A stretch of 23,294 nucleotides of DNA from IMG/VR virus record IMGVR_UViG_2703718831_000001; one strand, 5' to 3'. Under the pieces are notes generated by a model that saw nothing but the letters and a program-made list of their open reading frames with translations, made no database searches and was not told the origin of the DNA. This DNA is from a virus. Taxonomy: Duplodnaviria > Heunggongvirae > Uroviricota > Caudoviricetes. Each line of letters begins with the position of its first letter. Position 1 is the first letter of the stretch. Both the position numbers and the translations under genes were made by a program. Below, piece after piece: positions 1 through 10,945 of this stretch.

Positions 1-1026
1 TTAGCGATGCCAGTTGAGGTTATGAAGTGGATTTTTGGTAACGGCATCTTCCAGATGATCCGGTGCAAAATGGGCATAAATCATGGTCATTTTAATATCA
101 GCGTGTCCTAAAATATCCCTCAATACCAAAATGTTTCCGCCGTTCATCATAAAGTGGCTGGCGAAAGTGTGGCGCAGAACGTGGGTACATTGACCTTCAG
201 GTAGTTCAATTCCAGCTCGTTTTACCGCACGCTCAAAAGCCTTTCGGCATGGTGTGAATAACTTTCCTCTGTTTTTGGGTAATTCTTCATACAGTTCCTG
301 AGAAATAGGAACAGTTCGGTTTTTCTTTCCTTTTGTTTTGGTATAGGTAATTCGATACTTTGATATCTGGTTACCTTGCAGGTTTTCGGCTTCGCTCCAT
401 CTTGCCCCGGTAGCCAGGCAAATCTTGGCAATCATTAGCAGACTGGGACTTTGAGATTCAGCACATGCGTCAAGCAGGCGTTTGATTTCATCAGCAGCAA
501 GGAACGCCAGTTCACCTTCTGCAATTTTGAAAGTTGGCAGACCGGCGAGGGGGTTGGGTGCAGACCAATGTCCCAGCTTTTTCAGTGTGCCAAAAACTGA
601 GGATAGGTTACGCTGTTCAAGGTTCACCGTTCTGGGCTTAACCGGTGACATGAGCACGCCATCTTCGTTTTTGACCTCACCTTTTAATCTGGCTTCCCGG
701 TACTTTGTGAAATCACCTGCTGTCAATTCAGAAGCGATGGGATCGCCAAGTCCATTACAAATGATTTTTAACTTAGCCATTAATCGCTTAGGGTCAGCGA
801 GTGTCTGACCGTACAGGGAATACCATTGCTCAATCACTTCTGACAGTTGTCGCCGATCTTCCTTTTCTCCCAGCCAAGGTTTCTTGTTTACCTCATCCAT
901 GGTGAAATTCTCAAACGCAATGGCTTCGCCTTTCGTCGCAAATTGTTTGCGTACGCGTTTGCCATCTCTTCCGTTTGGGTAGCATTCACATAACCACTTT
1001 CCGTTCGGCTGTTTTCTGATGGTCAT
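1..1026 (-). CDS. int: Tyrosine site-specific integrase, P2/186 family
   Basis: 341-aa ORF. C-terminal catalytic region carries the tyrosine-recombinase residues (RWSE ... HVLRHTFAS ... LGHADIKMTMIYAH). It sits at the prophage edge directly downstream of the repressor gene, with 1 nt between cI stop and int start. Confidence 0.9.
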   Translation of the reverse strand: MTIRKQPNGKWLCECYPNGRDGKRVRKQFATKGEAIAFENFTMDEVNKKPWLGEKEDRRQLSEVIEQWYSLYGQTLADPKRLMAKLKIICNGLGDPIASELTAGDFTKYREARLKGEVKNEDGVLMSPVKPRTVNLEQRNLSSVFGTLKKLGHWSAPNPLAGLPTFKIAEGELAFLAADEIKRLLDACAESQSPSLLMIAKICLATGARWSEAENLQGNQISKYRITYTKTKGKKNRTVPISQELYEELPKNRGKLFTPCRKAFERAVKRAGIELPEGQCTHVLRHTFASHFMMNGGNILVLRDILGHADIKMTMIYAHFAPDHLEDAVTKNPLHNLNWHR

Positions 1027-1027
1027 A

Positions 1028-1660
1028 TCAAAGGCTCTTAATAATTTTCAGTGCGCGACCTATTACCTCAATGTCATCCAGTTCGCACTCAAACGATGAA
1101 TCATCCTGATGCACTACTAATCTGTTTCCCGGGAGTCGTGTCAATTTTACAATGCTTTTTATCCCGTCGATGTCCACTAACCACGTACCATTTACTGGTG
1201 GTGTTTGGTTGCGATCTATTAAATAAGAATCACCAGAAGTACTCACCAGCAGCAGGTTGCTTGAGTCTGAGGGGAGTATGCTGCTATCAATGATTGCTTT
1301 TCCAGCATCGACCAATAAACCACCGTTGAGAGTTGCCTTGTCAATTTCAGGAGATACAAGCTCAGAAAGAGGTTTAACCCTGCTGGAGTTCACAGAATTG
1401 ATATTTTTTTTAGGGTCAATTTTTGAACCTGGCTCGCCTTGTCCGGTGGTTAGCCACAGTAAAGAAACTCCTGTTTCCAAGGCGCACTGAATCACCCACT
1501 CTGCGGGAAAGCTATCTCTTAAGTATCTGTTTGCCATAGTGCTTTTTGATGCGCCTAAGTGATCGCAAAGTTGCTGTCTGGACTTGAAATCATAGGCTGC
1601 CATTAGTCTATGGATAGCCTCTCTTCCCCCTGTATTCTCGCCAGCTTTTACCTGTATCAT
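1028..1660 (-). CDS. cI: Phage immunity repressor, 186 CI-like
   Basis: 210-aa ORF with an N-terminal HTH-like region, transcribed divergently from the apl/cII operon and immediately upstream of int, as in 186-like lysogeny modules. Confidence 0.7.
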   Translation of the reverse strand: MIQVKAGENTGGREAIHRLMAAYDFKSRQQLCDHLGASKSTMANRYLRDSFPAEWVIQCALETGVSLLWLTTGQGEPGSKIDPKKNINSVNSSRVKPLSELVSPEIDKATLNGGLLVDAGKAIIDSSILPSDSSNLLLVSTSGDSYLIDRNQTPPVNGTWLVDIDGIKSIVKLTRLPGNRLVVHQDDSSFECELDDIEVIGRALKIIKSL

Positions 1661-1672
1661 TTCTTAATCCTA

Positions 1673-1701
1673 TTGACGTATCAAATATTGGATCGTAGTA
1701 T
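1673..1701 (+). promoter_or_regulatory. Sigma70-like rightward early promoter (pR-like), TTGACG-N17-TAGTAT
   Basis: Near-consensus -35 TTGACG (1673-1678) and -10 TAGTAT (1696-1701) with 17-bp spacing in the cI-apl intergenic region, oriented toward apl. Confidence 0.4.
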
Positions 1702-1720
1702 CTCGATGTATCAAATATTG
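1678..1720. promoter_or_regulatory. Two direct copies of GTATCAAATATTG, 30 bp apart: candidate repressor operators
   Basis: Exact 13-bp repeat at 1678-1690 and 1708-1720, each with a near-palindromic core (CAAATATTG), overlapping the pR-like promoter elements. Confidence 0.5.
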
Positions 1721-1779
1721 AATCTAATAAAACAAGATAAAACGACATAAACCAAACCTTAATCGAGAGATACTGCACT

Positions 1780-2028
1780 ATGAGCAACGACATTTCAATT
1801 CGTGTACCAAAAGTGATGGCGACACCTGCAGAGTTCGCGGAATGGGAAGGCCGCTCTCGCGGTTCGGTATATCAAATGATTCATAATGGTAAGCTCGCTA
1901 AATTCTTGGAAAAAAAGGAAAAACCGAAAGACAGAGTATGTATACGTTACCTTGAGTACAAAAAGGAACAAGTCAGGAAAAACATGGGCCAATCCAATTT
2001 CAATTTTAATGTCATCGTTGGTGGCTAA
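1780..2028 (+). CDS. apl: Apl/Cox-like excisionase and lytic-switch regulator
   Basis: 82-aa ORF, first gene rightward of the switch region, with an HTH-like segment (ATPAEFAEWEGRSRGSVYQMIHNGKL). Position matches 186 apl. Confidence 0.6.
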   Translation: MSNDISIRVPKVMATPAEFAEWEGRSRGSVYQMIHNGKLAKFLEKKEKPKDRVCIRYLEYKKEQVRKNMGQSNFNFNVIVGG

Positions 2029-2060
2029 GTTCAATTATGAGAACTTTCTAAGGGGGCAGC

Positions 2061-2570
2061 ATGTTTGATTACAAGATTTCCAAACATCCGCATTTTGATG
2101 AAGCCTGTAGAGCTTTTGCACTACGCCACAATATGGCGAAGCTGGCAGAACGTGCAGGAATGAATGTTCAGACACTGCGAAACAAACTCAACCCAGATCA
2201 ACCGCATCAGCTCACAGCGCCAGAAATCTGGTTGCTCACCGATCTGACTGAAGATTCAACGCTGGTAGATGGCTTTCTGGCACAGATTCACTGCCTGCCA
2301 TGCGTACCAATTAATGAGGTGGCAAAAGAGAAACTGCCACATTACGTCATGAGTGCAACCGCAGAGATCGGGCGTGTTGCTGCAGGTGCGGTATCTGGCG
2401 ATGTAAAAACCAGTGCAGGTCGTCGTGATGCTATCAGCAGCATTAACTCTGTAACACGACTGATGGCGCTGGCGGCTGTTTCATTGCAGGCCCGTTTACA
2501 GGCTAATCCTGCGATGGCGAGTGCAGTTGATACCGTGACTGGCCTCGGTGCTTCATTTGGTTTGCTGTGA
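2061..2570 (+). CDS. cII: CII-like regulatory protein (establishment of lysogeny)
   Basis: 169-aa ORF following apl with an HTH-like N-terminus (LAERAGMNVQTLRNKLNPDQ). Size and position match 186 CII. RBS AGGGGG upstream. Confidence 0.65.
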   Translation: MFDYKISKHPHFDEACRAFALRHNMAKLAERAGMNVQTLRNKLNPDQPHQLTAPEIWLLTDLTEDSTLVDGFLAQIHCLPCVPINEVAKEKLPHYVMSATAEIGRVAAGAVSGDVKTSAGRRDAISSINSVTRLMALAAVSLQARLQANPAMASAVDTVTGLGASFGLL

Positions 2571-2577
2571 GGTGCTT

Positions 2578-2778
2578 ATGCTGACGAAAGAACCATCATT
2601 TGCATCGCTGCTGGTTAAACAAAGCCCGGCAATGCATTACGGTCACGGCTGGATCATGGGGGAGGATGGTAAACGCTGGCATCCGTGCCGTTCACAAGAT
2701 GAATTGCTGGCAGAACTATCTACGAAAAAACGGGGGAACAAATGGCTATTGAAGGCACTGCAGCAACTGTTCCATTAA
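2578..2778 (+). CDS. Small early protein of unknown function (position of fil in 186-like phages)
   Basis: 66-aa ORF starting at the ATG at 2578, preceded by GAGGTG. The ORF-track start at 2548 lies inside cII and is less likely. Confidence 0.4.
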   Translation: MLTKEPSFASLLVKQSPAMHYGHGWIMGEDGKRWHPCRSQDELLAELSTKKRGNKWLLKALQQLFH

Positions 2779-3083
2779 GCCCCGGTGAACGCCTGAATGG
2801 ACTTAATCACATTGCGGAGTTAAGGGCGAAAGTTTTTGGCCTGAATATTGAGTCAGAGCTTGAGCGGTTTATTAAAGATATGCGTGATCCATGGGATATC
2901 AATAATGAACAAAATAAAAGGGCACTGGCTGCCATATTCTTTATGGCAAAAATTCCAGCTGAACGTCATAGCATCAGCATTAATGAGCTGACCACTGACG
3001 AAAAGCGGGAGTTGATTAAAGCAATGAATCATTTTCGTGCAGTGGTGAGCTTATTTCCCAGACGGCTAACCATGCCGAATTAA
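2742..3083 (+). CDS. Hypothetical early protein
   Basis: 113-aa ORF with a GGGGGA RBS upstream, overlapping the previous ORF by 37 nt. No recognisable motif. Confidence 0.45.
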   Translation: MAIEGTAATVPLSPGERLNGLNHIAELRAKVFGLNIESELERFIKDMRDPWDINNEQNKRALAAIFFMAKIPAERHSISINELTTDEKRELIKAMNHFRAVVSLFPRRLTMPN

Positions 3084-3150
3084 CCAACTAATGAAATTAA
3101 TGGCGTAAACCCGCCGGGCATCCCTTTATCTAAATTCAGGAGAATTGATT

Positions 3151-3384
3151 ATGCGTAATATTGAAACCCTCACGACTAAAACCGGACCGGATGATGCAGG
3201 GCTTAATATTTTACTGACAGAGGCTCGTCTGGAAGAACGCCGGGCAAGGGCTGAAGCAATGGCAGCTCGCCTTGATAGCCTGGCGTGTCATATCACATCC
3301 CGCCAGCTAAACCACGTCGAAGCAGCAGAACTGCTGCGTGTGACCGCTGAAGCAATCCAGAACGAAGCGCAGGAGATCCACTGA
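3151..3384 (+). CDS. Hypothetical early protein
   Basis: About 77 aa from the ATG at 3151, with CAGGAG RBS 8 nt upstream. The ORF-track start at 3145 is a TTG two codons earlier. Confidence 0.5.
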   Translation: MRNIETLTTKTGPDDAGLNILLTEARLEERRARAEAMAARLDSLACHITSRQLNHVEAAELLRVTAEAIQNEAQEIH

Positions 3385-3611
3385 TGGCTGATGCAATGGA
3401 TCTCGTACAGCAGCGAGTTGAAGAAGAACGCCAGCGTCATATCCGTGCTGCCCGTGCCAAAACGCCGGGCGTGTCCCGCGTGCTTTGCGTTGAGTGTGAA
3501 GCGCCAATTCCGCCAGCACGCCGTCGTGCCATTCCGGGTGTGCAGCTTTGCATTACCTGTCAGGAAATCGCAGAGCTGAAAGGCAAACATTACAACGGAG
3601 GTGCTGTATGA
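3384..3611 (+). CDS. TraR/DksA-family C4 zinc-finger protein
   Basis: 75-aa ORF with CxxC-N17-CxxC (CVECEAPIP...CITCQ) typical of phage TraR-like proteins. Start overlaps the upstream stop (TGATG); AGGAG RBS. Confidence 0.8.
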   Translation: MADAMDLVQQRVEEERQRHIRAARAKTPGVSRVLCVECEAPIPPARRRAIPGVQLCITCQEIAELKGKHYNGGAV

Positions 3612-4462
3612 GCACCATCCTGAAATGGGCGGGAAATAAAACCGCCATAATGTCCGAACTGAAAAAGCATCTTCCTGCTGGCCCGCGACTGGTTGAACCT
3701 TTCGCGGGTTCCTGTGCAGTGATGATGGAGACGGATTACCCCAGCTATCTTGTTGCGGATATTAATCCTGATTTAATCAACCTCTATAAAAAGGTTGCTG
3801 CTGATTGTGAGGCGTTTATATCTCGTGCCAGAGCTTTATTTGAGGAAGCAAACAGGGAGGTGGCTTATTACAACATAAGGCAGGAGTTTAATTACTCCAC
3901 TGAAATTACTGATTTCATGAAAGCGGTATATTTCCTGTATCTCAATCGTCACGGTTACCGTGGTTTATGTCGCTATAACAAGAGCGGGCATTTCAACATT
4001 CCCTACGGTAATTATAAAAATCCGTATTTCCCTGAAAAAGAAATTCGCGCATTTGCAGAGAAAGCCCAGCGGGCAACGTTTATCTGCGCCAGCTTTGATG
4101 AAACGCTGGCGATGTTGAAGGTGGGGGATGTGGTGTATTGCGATCCGCCTTATGACGGTACGTTTTCCGGCTATCACACTGATGGTTTCACTGAAGATGA
4201 TCAGTATCACCTGGCATCCATTCTTGAACATCGGTCATCAGAAGGACATCCGGTCATTGTTTCTAACAGTAACACGTCTTTGACCCGGTCCCTTTATCGT
4301 AATTTCACTCACCACTACATCAGGGCGAAACGCAGCATCGGCGTTGCAGCGGGGGAGGGAAAATTTGCAACTGAGATGATTGCCACTAAATCTGCTAATT
4401 GGTTTAGTGCCGATTTTAGTAGGGGACGTGACTCTACTGTTATTTTCGGGGTGCAAGTGTGA
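3608..4462 (+). CDS. dam: DNA N6-adenine methyltransferase, Dam-like (D12 class)
   Basis: The N-terminus from the ATG at 3608 reads [11 protein letters not shown]...EPFAGSCAV (SAM-binding motif) and the catalytic DPPY motif follows. GGAGG RBS. The ORF-track extension to 3548 is an upstream in-frame read-through. Confidence 0.9.
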
Positions 4463-5289
4463 AAGAAATGCACCACGGAATTCATCATTTCCATGGGACG
4501 CCTGTCTGGGGAAGTGCTGGCGACGTTCATCGTATTGCGGTGAGCGGAGCTGGCGCTTTCGTCTCCTATGTACGACCAGATCAGATTGCGGCGTCCATTC
4601 AGCACGCTCAGGTCGTCGGCATTGATAACGGCGCATTTTCTGCATGGGTGCGTGGGCTAAAAATTAACTGGAGTGATTTTTATAAATGGCTCCTGAACTA
4701 TTACCACCATCCTAAGGTCGCTTTTTTTGTCATTCCTGATGTTGTGGACGGAGGTGAACGTGACAATGATGCCCTGATAAACGAAGTTCCGAAAATGTTC
4801 TACGGGAAGGCAACTCCCGTCTGGCATCTGCACGAGTCAATCGATCGGCTTATCGAGCTATGTCGTGAATGGCCTCGTGTCTGCTTTGGATCGTCTGGTG
4901 AATATGCGGCTATCAGAACTGCGCACTGGCATCGTCGTATGCAGGACGCTTTTGAAGCAATTTATTGCCGACACAATTTCAAAACAGCTGTTCATGGTTT
5001 GCGCATGCTTGACGGTCGTGTGTTGGGAAATTACCCACTGGCGACTGCCGACAGTACAAATCTTGCCTGCAATGTCCCCAAATTTAATAGCAAATATCCT
5101 GAGCTGACGCGGGCTATTCAGGAGGCTGAGTATTCGCGCAATCTGACGGAAAAGGAGCTGAAAGCTGTCATTCTGAAAAACCGTTGCGCAATTTTAAAAG
5201 GTGCAATTGAAGCTGTTCGCCCACCTTCAGTTTCTGATTGGCTGTCGAATGGTTTGCAGCCTTCACAGCTCGAACTGGAGATTGCGTAA
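4459..5289 (+). CDS. Unassigned 276-aa protein; possibly a TGT-fold (DpdA-like) DNA transglycosylase
   Basis: ORF coupled to dam (GTGA overlap) and to gene A (TAATG overlap). Motifs in TGT-like order: VGIDNGAFS (cf. TDSGGFQ), [25 protein letters not shown] (cf. GIDMFDCV). No C-terminal zinc motif. The family call rests on motif resemblance only. Confidence 0.35.
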
Positions 5290-7661
5290 TGAACTACAGC
5301 TATTCCTGGAATGCTGAGAAAAAAGCAATCAATCCTTACGTAGAGACAGAAGAGCAATCTTCAGTTTCTGCGCTTTCAAACCTGATCGCTCTGTACGCTG
5401 CCGATAACGAGCAGGAACAGCTGCGCCGCGAGGCACTGAGTGATCAGGTCTGGGAGCGTTATTTCTTTAATGAATCCCGTGATCCTGTCCAGCGCGAAAT
5501 GGAGCAGGATAAGCTCATTAGTCGGGCAAAGCTGGCGCATGAGCAGCAGCGTTTTAATCCAGATATGGTCATTCTGGCGGACGTCAATGCCCAGCCTTCC
5601 CATATCAGCAAGCCACTGATGCAACGTATTGAATACTTCAGCAGCCTGGGCAGGCCAAAGGCTTATTCCCGCTATTTGCGTGAGACGATTAAGCCATGTC
5701 TGGAACGGCTGGAGCATGTACGCGACTGTCAGCTATCCACTTCTTTTCGCTTTATGGCAAGCCATGAAGGGCTGGACGGCCTGCTGATCCTGCCTGAAAT
5801 GAGTCAGGATCAGGTGAAACGCCTGTCCACCCTGGTAGCTGCGCATATGAGCATGTGCCTTGATGCAGCTTGTGGCGATTTGTATGTCACCGATGACGTT
5901 AAGCCAGAAGAAATCCGCAAGACATGGGAAAAGGTGGCAGCGGAAACCCTGCGTCTGGATGTCATCCCGCCTGCGTTTGAGCAACTCCGCCGGAAAAGAA
6001 ACCGCCGTAAACCCGTGCCCTATGAACTCATTCCGGGTTCGCTGGCGCGTATGTTGTGCGCTGACTGGTGGTACCGGAAATTATGGAAGATGCGTTGCGA
6101 ATGGCGGGAAGAGCAGTTGCGTGCTGTCTGCCTGGTCAGCAAAAAAGCATCTCCCTATGTCAGCTATGAAGCCGTGATGCATAAACGTGAGCAGCGCCGT
6201 AAGTCGCTGGAGTTTTTTCGTTCTCATGAACTGGTGAACGAAGACGGCGACACGCTGGACATGGAGGATGTGGTAAACGCCAGCAGCAGCAACCCTGCGC
6301 ATCGCCGCAATGAGATGATGGCCTGTGTTAAAGGCCTGGAGCTTATCGCGGAAATGCGCGGTGACTGCGCCGTTTTCTACACCATCACCTGTCCGTCACG
6401 TTTCCATTCCACGCTAAATAATGGCAGGCCCAACCCAACTTGGACAAATGCGACGGTAAGACAAAGCAGTGATTATCTGGTCGGCATGTTTGCTGCATTT
6501 CGTAAGGCGATGCACAAAGCCGGATTGCGGTGGTATGGCGTGCGGGTGGCTGAGCCGCATCATGACGGTACAGTTCACTGGCACCTGTTGTGTTTTATGC
6601 GCAAAAAAGACCGCCGCGCCATCACTGCATTACTGCGTAAGTTTGCCATCCGTGAAGACCGTGAGGAACTGGGCAATAACACTGGGCCGCGCTTTAAGTC
6701 TGAGTTGATTAACCCGCGCAAAGGTACGCCAACAAGCTACATCGCGAAATACATCAGTAAGAACATTGACGGGCGTGGTCTGGCTGGCGAGATCAGCAAG
6801 GAAACGGGGAAATCCCTGCGTGATAATGCTGAATACGTTAATGCCTGGGCGTCTCTGCATCGTGTTCAGCAATTCCGCTTCTTTGGCATTCCGGGGCGTC
6901 AGGCTTACCGTGAACTGCGATTGCTGGCTGGTCAGGCGGCAAGGCAACAGGGGGACAAAAAAGCAGGTGCGCCGGTACTGGATAACCCGCGCCTTGATGC
7001 CATCCTGGCTGCTGCTGATGCTGGTTGTTTTGCCACCTACATCATGAAGCAGGGCGGCGTACTGGTTCCCCGCAAATATCACCTCATCAGAACCGCTTAT
7101 GAAATCAACGAAGAGCCGACCGCCTATGGCGATCACGGCATTCGTATTTATGGCATCTGGTCACCTATTGCAGAGGGCAAGATCTGCACTCATGCCGTGA
7201 AGTGGAAAATGGTTCGTAAGGCCGTTGATGTTCAGGAGGCGGCAGCCGACCAGGGCGCTTGCGCCCCTTGGACTCGTGGCAATAACTGTCCCCTTGCTGA
7301 AAATTTGTACCAACAAGGGAAAGACAAATCAGCTGATGGAGATACCAGAACGGATATCACCCGCATGGATGACAAGGAGTTGCACGATTACCTGCACAGT
7401 ATGAGCAAAAAAGAGCGCCGGGAACTGGCAGCAAGGTTACGCCTGGTGAAACCGAAACGGCGTAAAGACTACAAACAGCGAATTACAGACCATCAGCGAC
7501 TGCAGCTCGTGTATGAACTGAAGTCCAGGGGATTTGATGGCAGCGAGAAAGAGGTCGATTTACTCCTTCGCGGCGGCAGTATTCCGTCAGGAGCAGGCCT
7601 GCGTATCTTCTATCGGAACCAGCGTTTGCAGGAAGATGATAAGTGGCGAAACCTGTATTAA
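5289..7661 (+). CDS. A: Replication initiation protein A (rolling-circle nicking endonuclease), P2 gpA family
   Basis: 790-aa ORF from the ATG at 5289 (overlapping the upstream stop). Contains an HUH-type metal motif ([13 protein letters not shown]) and a catalytic-tyrosine motif (SYIAKYISK). Size and position match P2/186 gene A. Confidence 0.9.
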
Positions 7662-7753
7662 TTACGCGGGTTAACAATTCGTGCTCTTAATAATACCAGG
7701 CATATCAGGCTGATGAGCGTAAAAAAACGTTTTACATCAGTAAGATTATTATA

Positions 7754-7773
7754 TACTGTAAATATAAACAGTG
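7754..7773. promoter_or_regulatory. LexA operator (SOS box) TACTGT-N8-ACAGTG overlapping a sigma70-like promoter
   Basis: Perfect CTGT-N8-ACAG core (7756-7771) with an AT-rich spacer (AAATATAA). A TTTACA -35-like hexamer lies at 7731-7736, and the module's first ATG is about 40 bp downstream. Confidence 0.65.
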
Positions 7774-7813
7774 GTTATGTATACAGTATTGCTTTGGTGT
7801 CATAGGAGGAAAG

Positions 7814-8002
7814 ATGCAGGACTATTTTTTGGAGTCTTTGAAGCTCCAGCGCATTGATTTTTTTCTTAAGCTTGTAGCGGCTAGTGAGTGTAGTGATGAA
7901 GAGAAGGGGCTGGCTCTGCAGTGGGTTTCTGAACTGACAGATGAACTCATGGCAAAAATCAGAACCCACGAATACAACCGCTCAATGGATGTCATCAGCT
8001 GA
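7814..8002 (+). CDS. Small SOS-module protein; possible N-terminal part of a Tum-like antirepressor
   Basis: 62-aa ORF with AGGAGGA RBS, directly downstream of the LexA box. It is in a different frame from, and overlaps the open upstream extension of, the DinI-like ORF. Confidence 0.4.
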   Translation: MQDYFLESLKLQRIDFFLKLVAASECSDEEKGLALQWVSELTDELMAKIRTHEYNRSMDVIS

Positions 8003-8012
8003 GGTGACTTTT

Positions 8013-8246
8013 ATGCGCATTGAAATAATGATCGATAAAGAGCAGAAGATTAGCCAGTCTACACTGGACGCCCTTGAATCCGAGCTTTACCGCAATCTGC
8101 GCCCCCTGTATCCCAAAACGGTAATTCGTATCCGCAAAGGTAGCTCTAACGGTGTGGAACTTACCGGATTGCAACTGGACGAAGAAAGAAAACAAGTGAT
8201 GAAAATTATGCAGAAGGTGTGGGAAGACGACAGCTGGTTGCATTAA
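8013..8246 (+). CDS. DinI-family protein (C-terminal domain type of 186 Tum)
   Basis: 77-aa ORF starting MRIEIMIDKEQ and ending KIMQKVWEDDSWLH, matching the DinI pattern (MRIEV...ETWE..DW). GAGGTG RBS. Confidence 0.7.
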   Translation: MRIEIMIDKEQKISQSTLDALESELYRNLRPLYPKTVIRIRKGSSNGVELTGLQLDEERKQVMKIMQKVWEDDSWLH

Positions 8247-8457
8247 GAAACGTTGCTGGCGTCTGAACCTGCTTCTGGCGTCAGCAAGGTTGAACCGCGA
8301 GCCTTGAGAGGCGTTAACCATAAGTAAAAAGACAGTAATCACTTGATTATCTATCAGGGCGAGACCTATGCTGCACTTTTAGTTATAACTCATAATGTAT
8401 TGAAATTATTAGAATATATGTCATTCTTAAAATGTGTATGCTTATCAAGGAGCAAGA

Positions 8458-9330
8458 ATGAAACGTGGCATTGTAGCTAATCCTAATGAAATGAGTTTTC
8501 ATAGAAATAATAGTACGGTCTATCTTGGGGCAGGTTTAACTGAGCAGGATATTAATTATTTCTGCTTTTACTGGGATGATGTGGTTATTCTAGATAGTGA
8601 AAATATTCACTCGATTGTGCCTAAAGAAAAAGAATTATTAGATAATGGGGTATTACGTAGACCTATTATGAAACATGATGGTATGCTGAATATCCAAGAC
8701 TTTCCATTTTTATATACGGAATTTCAGTTGCAGACATTGGATGAATTCAGGAAGAACGAGCCTGCTACTTATTGGCACTTTCATCAAACAGGGGAGAATT
8801 TAATATATGATAAAGAACAGAAAACGGCCCTTCAGTTGAGATTGGAGTTGTTTAATGTTCTGAGAATTCCTGATAAAGATGCTCATATAGAAGATATATT
8901 ACGTTTTAAAGATGATTGTCAGGATGATCTTAATGCGTTACATGAGTACTTAGAAAAACTGTATACTGAAGTCCTTTATTCTAGAGACCCTAATCTAACG
9001 AGGGCTAAAAATTTTTCTTTATTACAAGAGGCTGTAGTTAATCTTGATAAAGCTATCGAAGGGAAATGGAGAAATCCTATCAGAATGGGAGTCAAAGTTA
9101 ATCCAGAAGTAGATGGTGGGCAGGTTATGGAATTTTTAAAACCGTTGTACCATGCTGCTATTGCTGGTGATTCAGGCGGTATTATTCCCGGTATGGTTAC
9201 AGCCTTGGCAACCGCAATTCCAAGTTTTATAAAATTCCAACCAGAATGGGTGGGCTTTAGAGATAAGGGGCCTAAAGAATTAGCTTATCTTACCAAAGCA
9301 ACGCATAAGGGGTTGATTAAGAGAGCTTAA
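8458..9330 (+). CDS. Hypothetical 291-aa cargo protein in the gene A-cos accessory locus; contains a GDSGG motif
   Basis: ORF from the ATG at 8458 with AGGAG RBS, in a markedly AT-rich segment unlike the phage backbone. No recognisable family. C-terminal AIAGDSGGIIPG resembles a serine-hydrolase nucleophile motif. Confidence 0.6.
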   Translation: MKRGIVANPNEMSFHRNNSTVYLGAGLTEQDINYFCFYWDDVVILDSENIHSIVPKEKELLDNGVLRRPIMKHDGMLNIQDFPFLYTEFQLQTLDEFRKNEPATYWHFHQTGENLIYDKEQKTALQLRLELFNVLRIPDKDAHIEDILRFKDDCQDDLNALHEYLEKLYTEVLYSRDPNLTRAKNFSLLQEAVVNLDKAIEGKWRNPIRMGVKVNPEVDGGQVMEFLKPLYHAAIAGDSGGIIPGMVTALATAIPSFIKFQPEWVGFRDKGPKELAYLTKATHKGLIKRA

Positions 9331-9737: not shown

Positions 9738-10310
9738 GTGCAGGTAGTTCATATAGGGTTTCATAACTGCCTTAATCGTGGCAGTTATGAGACGATACGG
9801 CAAAGCGTACCCTTTTTAAGCCGTTCAGGCCCTAAACAATGGTTAACTCAAGGTTACTATTTTTGGACTGATGACCCATACTGGGCTCATCAGTGGAACG
9901 AAGGTCATGATACGGTGATTAGTGAATTTTCTATCACCTTTGATTCAAAGGATGAGTTGCTTGATTTGGTTGGAAATGCTCGAGATATCAGGCAATTTGA
10001 AGCTATGCGTCAGAAAGTTGCCAGTACTTTGACTCGAATGAGCGCCTTGCATATCACAGTCAATCAGGTCATTAGCTTTTTTAGAGAGCTCGAGCAATCT
10101 GATGATTTTAAAGGCGTATTTCCATATGCTGCTGTTAAGGCACAAGATAGTACGAAAGTGTCTAATCTTATAAGACTTAACTTTGTAGATGAGCGCCCAG
10201 AACAGATGGTTTCATTTACCCGTCAGCAAATGTGTGTTTATGAACATGCTCGAGGTAAGATAGAGTTTAGAAGATTTATCTTTCCAGAGCATTTCTGTGA
10301 GAAGGATTAA
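9738..10310 (+). CDS. Hypothetical protein, first gene of a three-gene cargo operon
   Basis: 190-aa ORF with GTG start and AGAGAGGA RBS 5 nt upstream. AT-rich. No recognisable motif. Confidence 0.55.
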   Translation: MQVVHIGFHNCLNRGSYETIRQSVPFLSRSGPKQWLTQGYYFWTDDPYWAHQWNEGHDTVISEFSITFDSKDELLDLVGNARDIRQFEAMRQKVASTLTRMSALHITVNQVISFFRELEQSDDFKGVFPYAAVKAQDSTKVSNLIRLNFVDERPEQMVSFTRQQMCVYEHARGKIEFRRFIFPEHFCEKD

Positions 10311-10319
10311 GGAGGAAAA

Positions 10320-10553
10320 ATGCTTTCCTTTGAACAAAGAATGGCCTTACTTAACAAGGCATTACAGCAGTATACTCCTGAGTCGCTTTATGAAAAATTA
10401 AGCTCGTACCCGGCTTATGGACCAACAATCGTAAGCTACGAGCTTCCAAGCTCTGAAGGGTTCATTACATTGAGACCACGTCTGATCAATCATGCTGCTG
10501 AACGTTCAGTGGATTTCTTTTCAGATGATACTGAATTGGATTTAGCGGCCTGA
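10320..10553 (+). CDS. Hypothetical small protein, second gene of the cargo operon
   Basis: 77-aa ORF with a strong GGAGG RBS, 9 nt after the upstream stop. Confidence 0.5.
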   Translation: MLSFEQRMALLNKALQQYTPESLYEKLSSYPAYGPTIVSYELPSSEGFITLRPRLINHAAERSVDFFSDDTELDLAA

Positions 10554-10555
10554 CG

Positions 10556-10945
10556 ATGAAACTAAGATTACGGGATAATACTGTTACTCGACTGTTGTTT
10601 GTCGATGCTGAAGGGCGCAAAATCGAATCTGGTTTTGCGCTTCGATTTAAGCCCATTTTTGATGAAAATCCGCGCGAATTTTCAGTATTGTTTGATTTTT
10701 ATTACATTACTGAGAATGATCGGGCATTACGAGTCGAGTTTCAAAGTGTTTTTGAAACAGATAAAGACATTGACGATTCTTTTAAAGAATCGAAGTTTCC
10801 AGTTGTTAATGCTCCTGCGATATCGTTCCCGTTTTTACGTTCGTTTGTTGCCAATTTTTTGATGACAAGTGGGTATACACCGATCCTGCTTCCTAGCTTT
10901 AACTTTACAACTTTTGAACAGGATATCGGGAAGTTTCCTAACTGA
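10556..10945 (+). CDS. Hypothetical protein, third gene of the cargo operon
   Basis: 129-aa ORF whose ATG lies 2 nt after the upstream stop (TGACGATG), followed directly by a terminator. Confidence 0.5.
   Translation: MKLRLRDNTVTRLLFVDAEGRKIESGFALRFKPIFDENPREFSVLFDFYYITENDRALRVEFQSVFETDKDIDDSFKESKFPVVNAPAISFPFLRSFVANFLMTSGYTPILLPSFNFTTFEQDIGKFPN

Follow-up and report, generated by a model that had tools for sequence, protein, structure and literature searches.

Described DpdA enzymes and the present locus

DpdA1 enzymes are found in the Queuovirinae (Escherichia phage CAjan gp35, 9g, Bas24); CAjan-type enzymes are accompanied by folE, queD, queE and queC and replace 25–32% of G. Deletion of gp35 abolishes 2′-deoxy-7-cyano-7-deazaguanosine (dPreQ0) in CAjan DNA (PMC6884629). 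Other phages carry a singleton DpdA, with no phage genes for synthesis of 7-cyano-7-deazaguanine (preQ0) or of the archaeosine base (G+); among these are Pantoea phage MED16 gp38, Salmonella phage 7-11 gp032 and Salmonella phage SEN1 gp38 (Hutinet 2019 group 3; Šimoliūnienė 2021). Here we describe a relative of the same family as these 234–276-aa proteins, a 276-aa open reading frame (ORF) on the plus strand at 4459–5289 of a 23,294-nt stretch of Caudoviricetes DNA (IMG/VR record IMGVR_UViG_2703718831_000001), hereafter the window, which covers two-thirds of a P2/186-like prophage (~33-kb genome) from its left end. The protein is probably a stand-alone phage DpdA that swaps guanine in double-stranded DNA for a host-made 7-deazaguanine, sparsely and early in the lytic cycle, perhaps as protection from a nuclease.

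Singleton DpdAs were catalogued in Supplementary Data 1 of Hutinet 2019, which lists SEN1 (YP_009217891), BTP1, SfI, SPN3UB and 7-11, and it was remarked there that singleton clusters might have diverged functionally (PMC6884629). By liquid chromatography–tandem mass spectrometry (LC-MS/MS), DNA of phage 7-11 contains 50 2′-deoxy-7-amido-7-deazaguanosines (dADG) per 10^6 nt (PMC6884629), and that of MED16 contains 354 dADG per 10^6 nt, plus N6-methyladenine (m6A) (PMC8306585). MED16 DNA is resistant to Dam-sensitive enzymes and is cut by the G-site enzymes tested (PMC8306585). Mycobacterium phage Orion has a singleton DpdA and no 7-deazaguanine in its DNA; its host makes no preQ0 (PMC6884629). 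SEN1 gp38 and SW9 gp39 were given as the sole viral neighbours of MED16 gp38, whose HHpred match to T. maritima tRNA-guanine transglycosylase (TGT) is reported as 99.2% (PMC8306585). In the literature we found no paper testing a P2-like member. The ORF is a further member of a group that is already catalogued, and whose P2-like representative SEN1 was listed in 2019; a modest interest remains in the biology of singleton DpdAs and in the missed annotation.

In SEN1 dpdA occupies the same slot directly upstream of the replication gene A, but SEN1 lacks Dam, while dpdA of the prophage studied here directly follows a Dam-family (D12-class) methylase gene. MED16 has a separate Dam-superfamily methylase together with m6A. 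Gene contexts differ in MED16 and 7-11, which are virulent or unrelated phages.

Family assignment

The ORF and CAjan gp35 both match the PHROGs family phrog_887, "queuine tRNA-ribosyltransferase" (E 2.4e-96 and 8e-96, respectively). Two P2-like Salmonella phages, SI22 and SEN1, encode hypothetical proteins with 75–76% identity to the ORF (76% for SEN1); identity is 55% with MED16 gp38, 40% with 7-11 gp032 and, over the barrel, ~40% for the BTP1, SfI and SPN3UB genes. Among 1.84 billion cluster representatives searched there were 901 relatives, mostly ~190–270 aa among the top matches listed. The family profile and all conservation counts below are from 80 diverse relatives. This profile aligns by hhalign with CAjan DpdA over residues 32–204 (98.8% probability, E 5e-17).

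The predicted structure is a (β/α)8 barrel of the TGT superfamily. In the fold comparison QTRT2 scored 13.5, with unrelated TIM barrels at most 13.5. Foldseek against BFVD returned 32 matches at E ≤ 1e-3, which are phage proteins, including one each from Mycobacterium phage Bella96 and Vibrio phage nt-1; the 10 named ones are queuine/queuosine tRNA-ribosyltransferases, except for one ART-PolyVal-like domain protein.

Standard models do not recognize the family. The ORF has no match in Pfam, NCBIfam or PADLOC, and PF01702 (TGT) matches neither the ORF nor any of the 80 relatives. Searches of PDB sequences by phmmer and by profile gave chance matches only (coat protein, GCN4 coiled coils). Since hhalign could not match the family profile to one E. 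coli Tgt sequence (probability 1%), the ORF is linked to TGT by its fold, through CAjan DpdA as an intermediate, and by the published HHpred match of MED16 gp38. Evidence from profiles, fold and homology agrees in upholding the preliminary description of the ORF as DpdA-like, with a TGT fold and no zinc subdomain, and judged from sequence it is a member of the singleton subgroup of the phage DpdA family.

With DpdA1 of the Queuovirinae the ORF shares, besides phrog_887, the positions of the catalytic Asp and His residues, the absence of a zinc subdomain, and no need for a DpdB-type ATPase partner. It differs in being only ~22% identical, in an unrelated C-terminal region, and in the base-recognition Asp, which is D94 here and the D of VLDG in CAjan, three residues apart in the alignment. 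Bacterial DpdA (S. Montevideo, PDB 7UI4) is a protein of 413 aa with a large β8/α8 insertion bearing a structural zinc site, and needs the DpdB ATPase, and DpdC for dADG; insertion, zinc site, DpdB and DpdC are all absent here. Neither is the ORF part of a Dpd restriction-modification system, as the PADLOC Dpd models do not match it and its neighbors are P2/186-type phage genes. Bacterial and archaeal TGT (arcTGT) are marked by PF01702, the zinc site and, in arcTGT, C-terminal domains; the ORF has none of these, and its substrate is presumed to be DNA. Cap10 of type IV CBASS is similar by fold only, and Pfam and PADLOC scans of window genes, like the annotation of the prophage, showed neither Cap9 (QueC-like) nor a CD-NTase.

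Active site

Six residues (D56, D94, H123, H179, D198 and S199) are invariant in 80/80 relatives, and N57, G58, A59, G144, L181 and R182 are nearly so. In the predicted structure the conserved residues are placed at the C-terminal ends of strands 3, 4, 5, 6, 7 and 8. D56, H123, H179 and D198-S199 align by hhalign with identical residues of CAjan DpdA.

In S. Montevideo DpdA the general acid/base is Asp95, four positions ahead of Phe99, and the base is recognized by Asp130 and His181; strand 6 leads into a Gly-rich loop, and the insertion beyond strand 8 has the nucleophile, Asp256, where it begins (PMC10164549). We mapped the ORF to these residues (Asp95, Asp130, His181 and Asp256) by strand position and by the CAjan alignment. 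D56, with F60, is then the candidate general acid/base, D94 and H123 are the candidate base readers, and the loop G144-S-S-G147 after strand 6 may accommodate the 7-substituent. D198 in TADSTN (D198-S199) is the candidate nucleophile. H179 and L181 are further candidate active-site residues.

The four motifs listed in the preliminary description are all present (VGIDNGAFS at 53–61, VIPDVVDGG at 91–99, FGSSGEY at 143–149 and GLRMLDGRV at 180–188), but the fourth does not hold the catalytic Asp. GLRMLDGRV corresponds to strand 7, and its D185 is conserved in just 27/80 relatives and aligns with a Ser in CAjan; TADSTN was not among the motifs listed. The absence of the zinc subdomain is confirmed: after D198 there are two Cys and no His, and CxCxxC occurs in 0/80 relatives. 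CAjan DpdA likewise has no zinc subdomain, and because of this absence the phrog_887-type family is set apart from TGT and from bacterial DpdA proper.

Gene structure and early operon

The dpdA gene lies in the rightward early operon. Window genes were scanned with PADLOC, Pfam and PHROGs, giving the order integrase, CI, rightward early operon, DinI-like gene, cargo, and structural and lysis genes:

1–1026, minus strand, integrase
1028–1660, minus strand, CI repressor
1673–1701, plus strand, candidate early lytic promoter TTGACG-17-TAGTAT (from a consensus scan only, such sites being at or below chance frequency)
2061–2570, plus strand, CII, in the rightward early operon
2742–3083, plus strand, DUF5347 gene, in the rightward early operon
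3145–3384, plus strand, DUF2732 gene, in the rightward early operon
3384–3611, plus strand, TraR/DksA-type C4 zinc-finger protein (PF01258, TIGR02419, phrog_54)
3608–4462, plus strand, Dam-family N6-adenine DNA methyltransferase, 284 aa (PF02086, TIGR00571, PADLOC)
4459–5289, plus strand, singleton phage DpdA-family gene without zinc subdomain, 276 aa (GTG start at 4459, TAA at 5287–5289)
approximately 4386–5362, plus strand, mosaic block separating dpdA-plus from dpdA-less prophages (pairwise DNA alignments)
5289–7661, plus strand, P2-type replication initiator gene A, a nicking endonuclease (PF05840 E 7e-128, phrog_91)
downstream of A, DinI-like gene, then cargo region, then portal, terminase, capsid, lysis and tail genes

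The genes around dpdA are tightly packed. The TraR stop and the dam start overlap in ATGA at 3608–3611, and dam runs from ATG at 3608 to TGA at 4460–4462. The GTG of the ORF at 4459 overlaps the dam stop (GTGA), and its own stop has one base in common with the ATG of gene A (TAATG; A from 5289), bearing out the earlier view of a 276-aa ORF coupled on both sides, subject to a choice of start. RefSeq/PGAP places the start at ATG 4468, five bases past the dam stop, for a protein of 273 aa; the first ~8 residues vary among homologues, and for this reason the start is left undecided between GTG 4459 and ATG 4468. The spacing is close enough that coupled translation would be compatible with either. 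In comparisons with six orthologues from other genera, nonsynonymous divergence (pN) is 0.13–0.21 and synonymous divergence (pS) a saturated 0.72–0.83, a signature of purifying selection which argues that the ORF is a real, selected protein-coding gene. The antisense ORFs at 4238–4645 and 4315–4605 are without support and were taken as spurious.

In one protein from a Logan assembly (P0011, 421 aa), a PF02086 domain leads into sequence that is 100% identical to the ORF. This apparent Dam-DpdA fusion is most likely not real, but produced by a frameshift or an assembly error where the two genes overlap (GTGA).

The E. coli ERP001 prophage is annotated with identical gene order and is 99.8% identical across the dam-ORF region; there the ORF is a "hypothetical protein" whose start is the ATG matching window position 4468.

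The candidate promoter at 1673–1701 is just beyond the CI gene, which is on the opposite strand, a position that would agree with the early-operon layout of 186 and P2. A consensus scan of the plus strand found no further promoter-like site between it and gene A, and terminator-like sites there were no commoner than in shuffled sequence (scan of 1000–8500, counts at or below chance). At 4417–4439 on the plus strand, in the 3′-terminal part of dam, there is an 8-bp hairpin with TTATTTT after it, a site that belongs to the mosaic block and is just upstream of the dpdA start; its reading as a terminator was dropped, such counts being at chance level. No Rfam families or tRNAs were found in the window.

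Distribution of dpdA and its relation to dam

By its domain matches the gene at 3608–4462 is a bona fide D12-class Dam-family methylase: PF02086 matches at E 2e-76 (257 bits), TIGR00571 scores 318 bits vs. a cut-off of 115, the PADLOC orphan methyltransferase model gives E 6e-110, and the DPPY catalytic motif reads CDPPYDG.

A TraR-Dam-A segment is found in ~1,242 of 5,426 complete E. coli genomes. The ORF lies between dam and A in 102–105 of these, at 99–100% identity; in the ~1,140 E. coli genomes with TraR-Dam-A and no dpdA, dam adjoins A directly. A few dpdA-less E. coli prophages have a DUF3850 gene before dam. In E. coli 23-AB02114 it is found between TraR and dam (725–1027 of that locus, L007, against window position 3611), so that the early operon has at least two variable slots, one before dam and one between dam and A. 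Alignment with the E. coli W prophage breaks down within the final ~25 codons of dam and resumes ~25 codons into gene A, and prophages without dpdA match the query over 1532 bp rather than 2317 bp, a difference of 785 bp. What separates the two kinds of prophage is a mosaic block, not a clean insertion.

Nine P2-like dpdA loci were examined. Eight of them have no Dam, with dpdA just before A (SEN1, a Serratia prophage and six enterobacterial loci), and one, from Atlantibacter, has the same Dam. A locus of Rosenbergiella metrosideri (L019 6001–7686) has a dpdA-like gene encoding a 62% identical protein, followed directly by an unrelated Dam that is 34% identical to that of the window, and in MED16 an unrelated adenine methylase gene lies ~1.2 kb upstream of dpdA; in these two loci, the co-occurrence of an adenine methylase with a singleton dpdA is loose but repeated. 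In an E. coli HK97-like prophage and in BTP1, dpdA is found in quite different early or late-regulatory regions.

The preliminary description had joined Dam and DpdA into a two-layer anti-restriction module. With dpdA in so small a share of the TraR-Dam-A operons, and Dam missing from all but one of the nine P2-like loci, we reject the idea of a functional, conserved Dam-DpdA module. The proximity of the two genes is incidental, Dam being an independent, putatively GATC-type methylase that is much more widespread; they became neighbors when the dpdA cassette entered the slot upstream of gene A. The recurrent position of dpdA in the early operon, beside replication functions, would fit a DNA-modifying enzyme that acts after replication. 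As for the two layers, the dADG levels reported for 7-11 and MED16, and the cutting of MED16 DNA, leave anti-restriction by the singleton subgroup unproven, as far as these relatives can be a guide.

Precursor supply and proposed function

No preQ0 synthesis gene is present in the window, as stated in the preliminary description: tblastn with CAjan FolE, QueD, QueC, QueE and YhhQ gave chance-level matches only, and the annotation of the full ERP001 prophage lists no preQ0 or G+ synthesis genes. The ORF is a singleton DpdA in this sense of having no such phage-encoded genes, and its dependence on host precursors, proposed at the same time, would follow as part of the supported core of that description. 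The dpdA of phage 9g, alone in E. coli, produces dPreQ0 in plasmid DNA; host preQ0 therefore suffices for a phage DpdA.

Because dpdA is in the early lytic operon, with abutting or overlapping codons, it would be made together with the replication initiator and be repressed in the lysogen; after induction it would be transcribed with gene A from the early promoter. The enzyme would then act on duplex phage DNA by double-displacement guanine exchange, as in TGT and bacterial DpdA. D198 would attack C1′ and displace guanine, with D56 as the acid; recognition of the base would fall to D94 and H123, and the 7-substituent would fit in the G144-SSG loop. Host preQ0 (from E. coli FolE, QueD, QueE and QueC) or a close precursor would resolve the covalent intermediate. 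By analogy with 7-11 and MED16, the outcome may be ~3–25 modified G per 33-kb genome, as dADG with traces of dPreQ0, and/or as dPreQ0, at few sites and not as bulk replacement; so few modified G per genome would imply that modification is sequence-specific. The presumed role is to shield packaged DNA from a nuclease whose site overlaps the target motif. Protection against some host nuclease is the most likely purpose, and also the least secure step of this explanation.

At the rates of 7-11 and MED16, and with MED16 DNA still cleavable at G-containing sites, the modification might have a purpose other than classical anti-restriction, such as mimicry of the Dpd 'self' mark, or a site-specific epigenetic signal, for instance in packaging, in replication or in telling superinfecting phages apart. 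Bacterial Dpd systems have dADG as their end product (PMC10164549). Dpd clusters are found in E. coli and Salmonella strains, and the patchy, cassette-like occurrence of the gene would suit such a role too. However, PADLOC detected no Dpd-like restriction genes in the window, and sparse marks could still block a nuclease that recognizes their long motif, a case of anti-restriction of the ordinary kind; we regard the idea as unlikely. In a more specific proposal, singleton DpdAs of temperate enterobacterial phages write a few sequence-specific dADG without DpdC, either inserting the QueC intermediate ADG directly or themselves hydrating the nitrile, and thereby copy the Dpd 'self' signal of the host or another long-motif nuclease target. 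This is a speculation to which we attach a rather low probability; if true, a cassette of a single gene would secure immunity against a defence island of many genes.

Two other readings concern the substrate and whether the enzyme acts at all. An active TGT-like transglycosylase might modify a host or phage tRNA, or attach a 7-deazaguanine derivative to a protein, the CD-NTase being the target of Cap10 in type IV CBASS. Genes for a Cap9/QueC-like protein, a CD-NTase or a tRNA are absent from the window, though, and the ORF lacks both the zinc subdomain and the C-terminal domains of TGT and arcTGT; its homology is to phage DpdA, with the same PHROG and the strong hhalign match to the CAjan enzyme, and the gene sits with DNA replication and methylation genes, all of which makes a substrate other than phage DNA improbable. 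Nor do we give much credence to a gene that is functionally silent in E. coli, carried along with the mosaic block and leaving no detectable modification. Orion, with its singleton DpdA and unmodified DNA, is the precedent for this, and the gene is dispensable, ~90% of related E. coli prophages being without it. But E. coli makes preQ0 and the Orion host does not, purifying selection across genera is strong, the catalytic residues are all invariant, and the close relative MED16 is modified.

The assignment of the ORF to DpdA fills an annotation gap, since no Pfam or NCBIfam model recognizes the family; RefSeq has it as a "hypothetical protein" in ~2% of the complete genomes of E. coli, among them ATCC 8739, APEC O78 and UMNK88. 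Singleton DpdAs are the least understood part of the field of 7-deazaguanine DNA modification, and a P2/186-like prophage in laboratory E. coli with natural dpdA-plus and dpdA-minus relatives would be a convenient system for them. The assignment is also relevant to defences directed at 7-deazaguanine DNA (GrwAB, Dag1/2); in principle these could detect such phages.

Cargo region and DinI-like gene

P2-like phages have a hotspot for variable cargo, including defence genes, at the position between gene A/DinI and the portal gene. In the window it holds a complete three-gene anti-phage defence system:

9738–10945, plus strand, PD-T4-9 system
9738–10310, plus strand, PD-T4-9 A (PADLOC E 3e-96)
10320–10553, plus strand, PD-T4-9 B (PADLOC E 5e-39)
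10556–10945, plus strand, PD-T4-9 C (PADLOC E 1e-60)

Also in the cargo region, at 8434–9330 on the plus strand, is a gene for a 298-aa DUF6236 protein (Pfam E 1e-20; no PADLOC match), which could be another defence or accessory gene. The DinI-like ORF at 7941–8246 on the plus strand (101 aa) is longer than the corresponding ERP001 RefSeq gene (234 nt, ~8013–8246), and its true start is probably an internal ATG. The ERP001 relative has other cargo at the same spot, encoding AlbA-domain and ATP-binding proteins.
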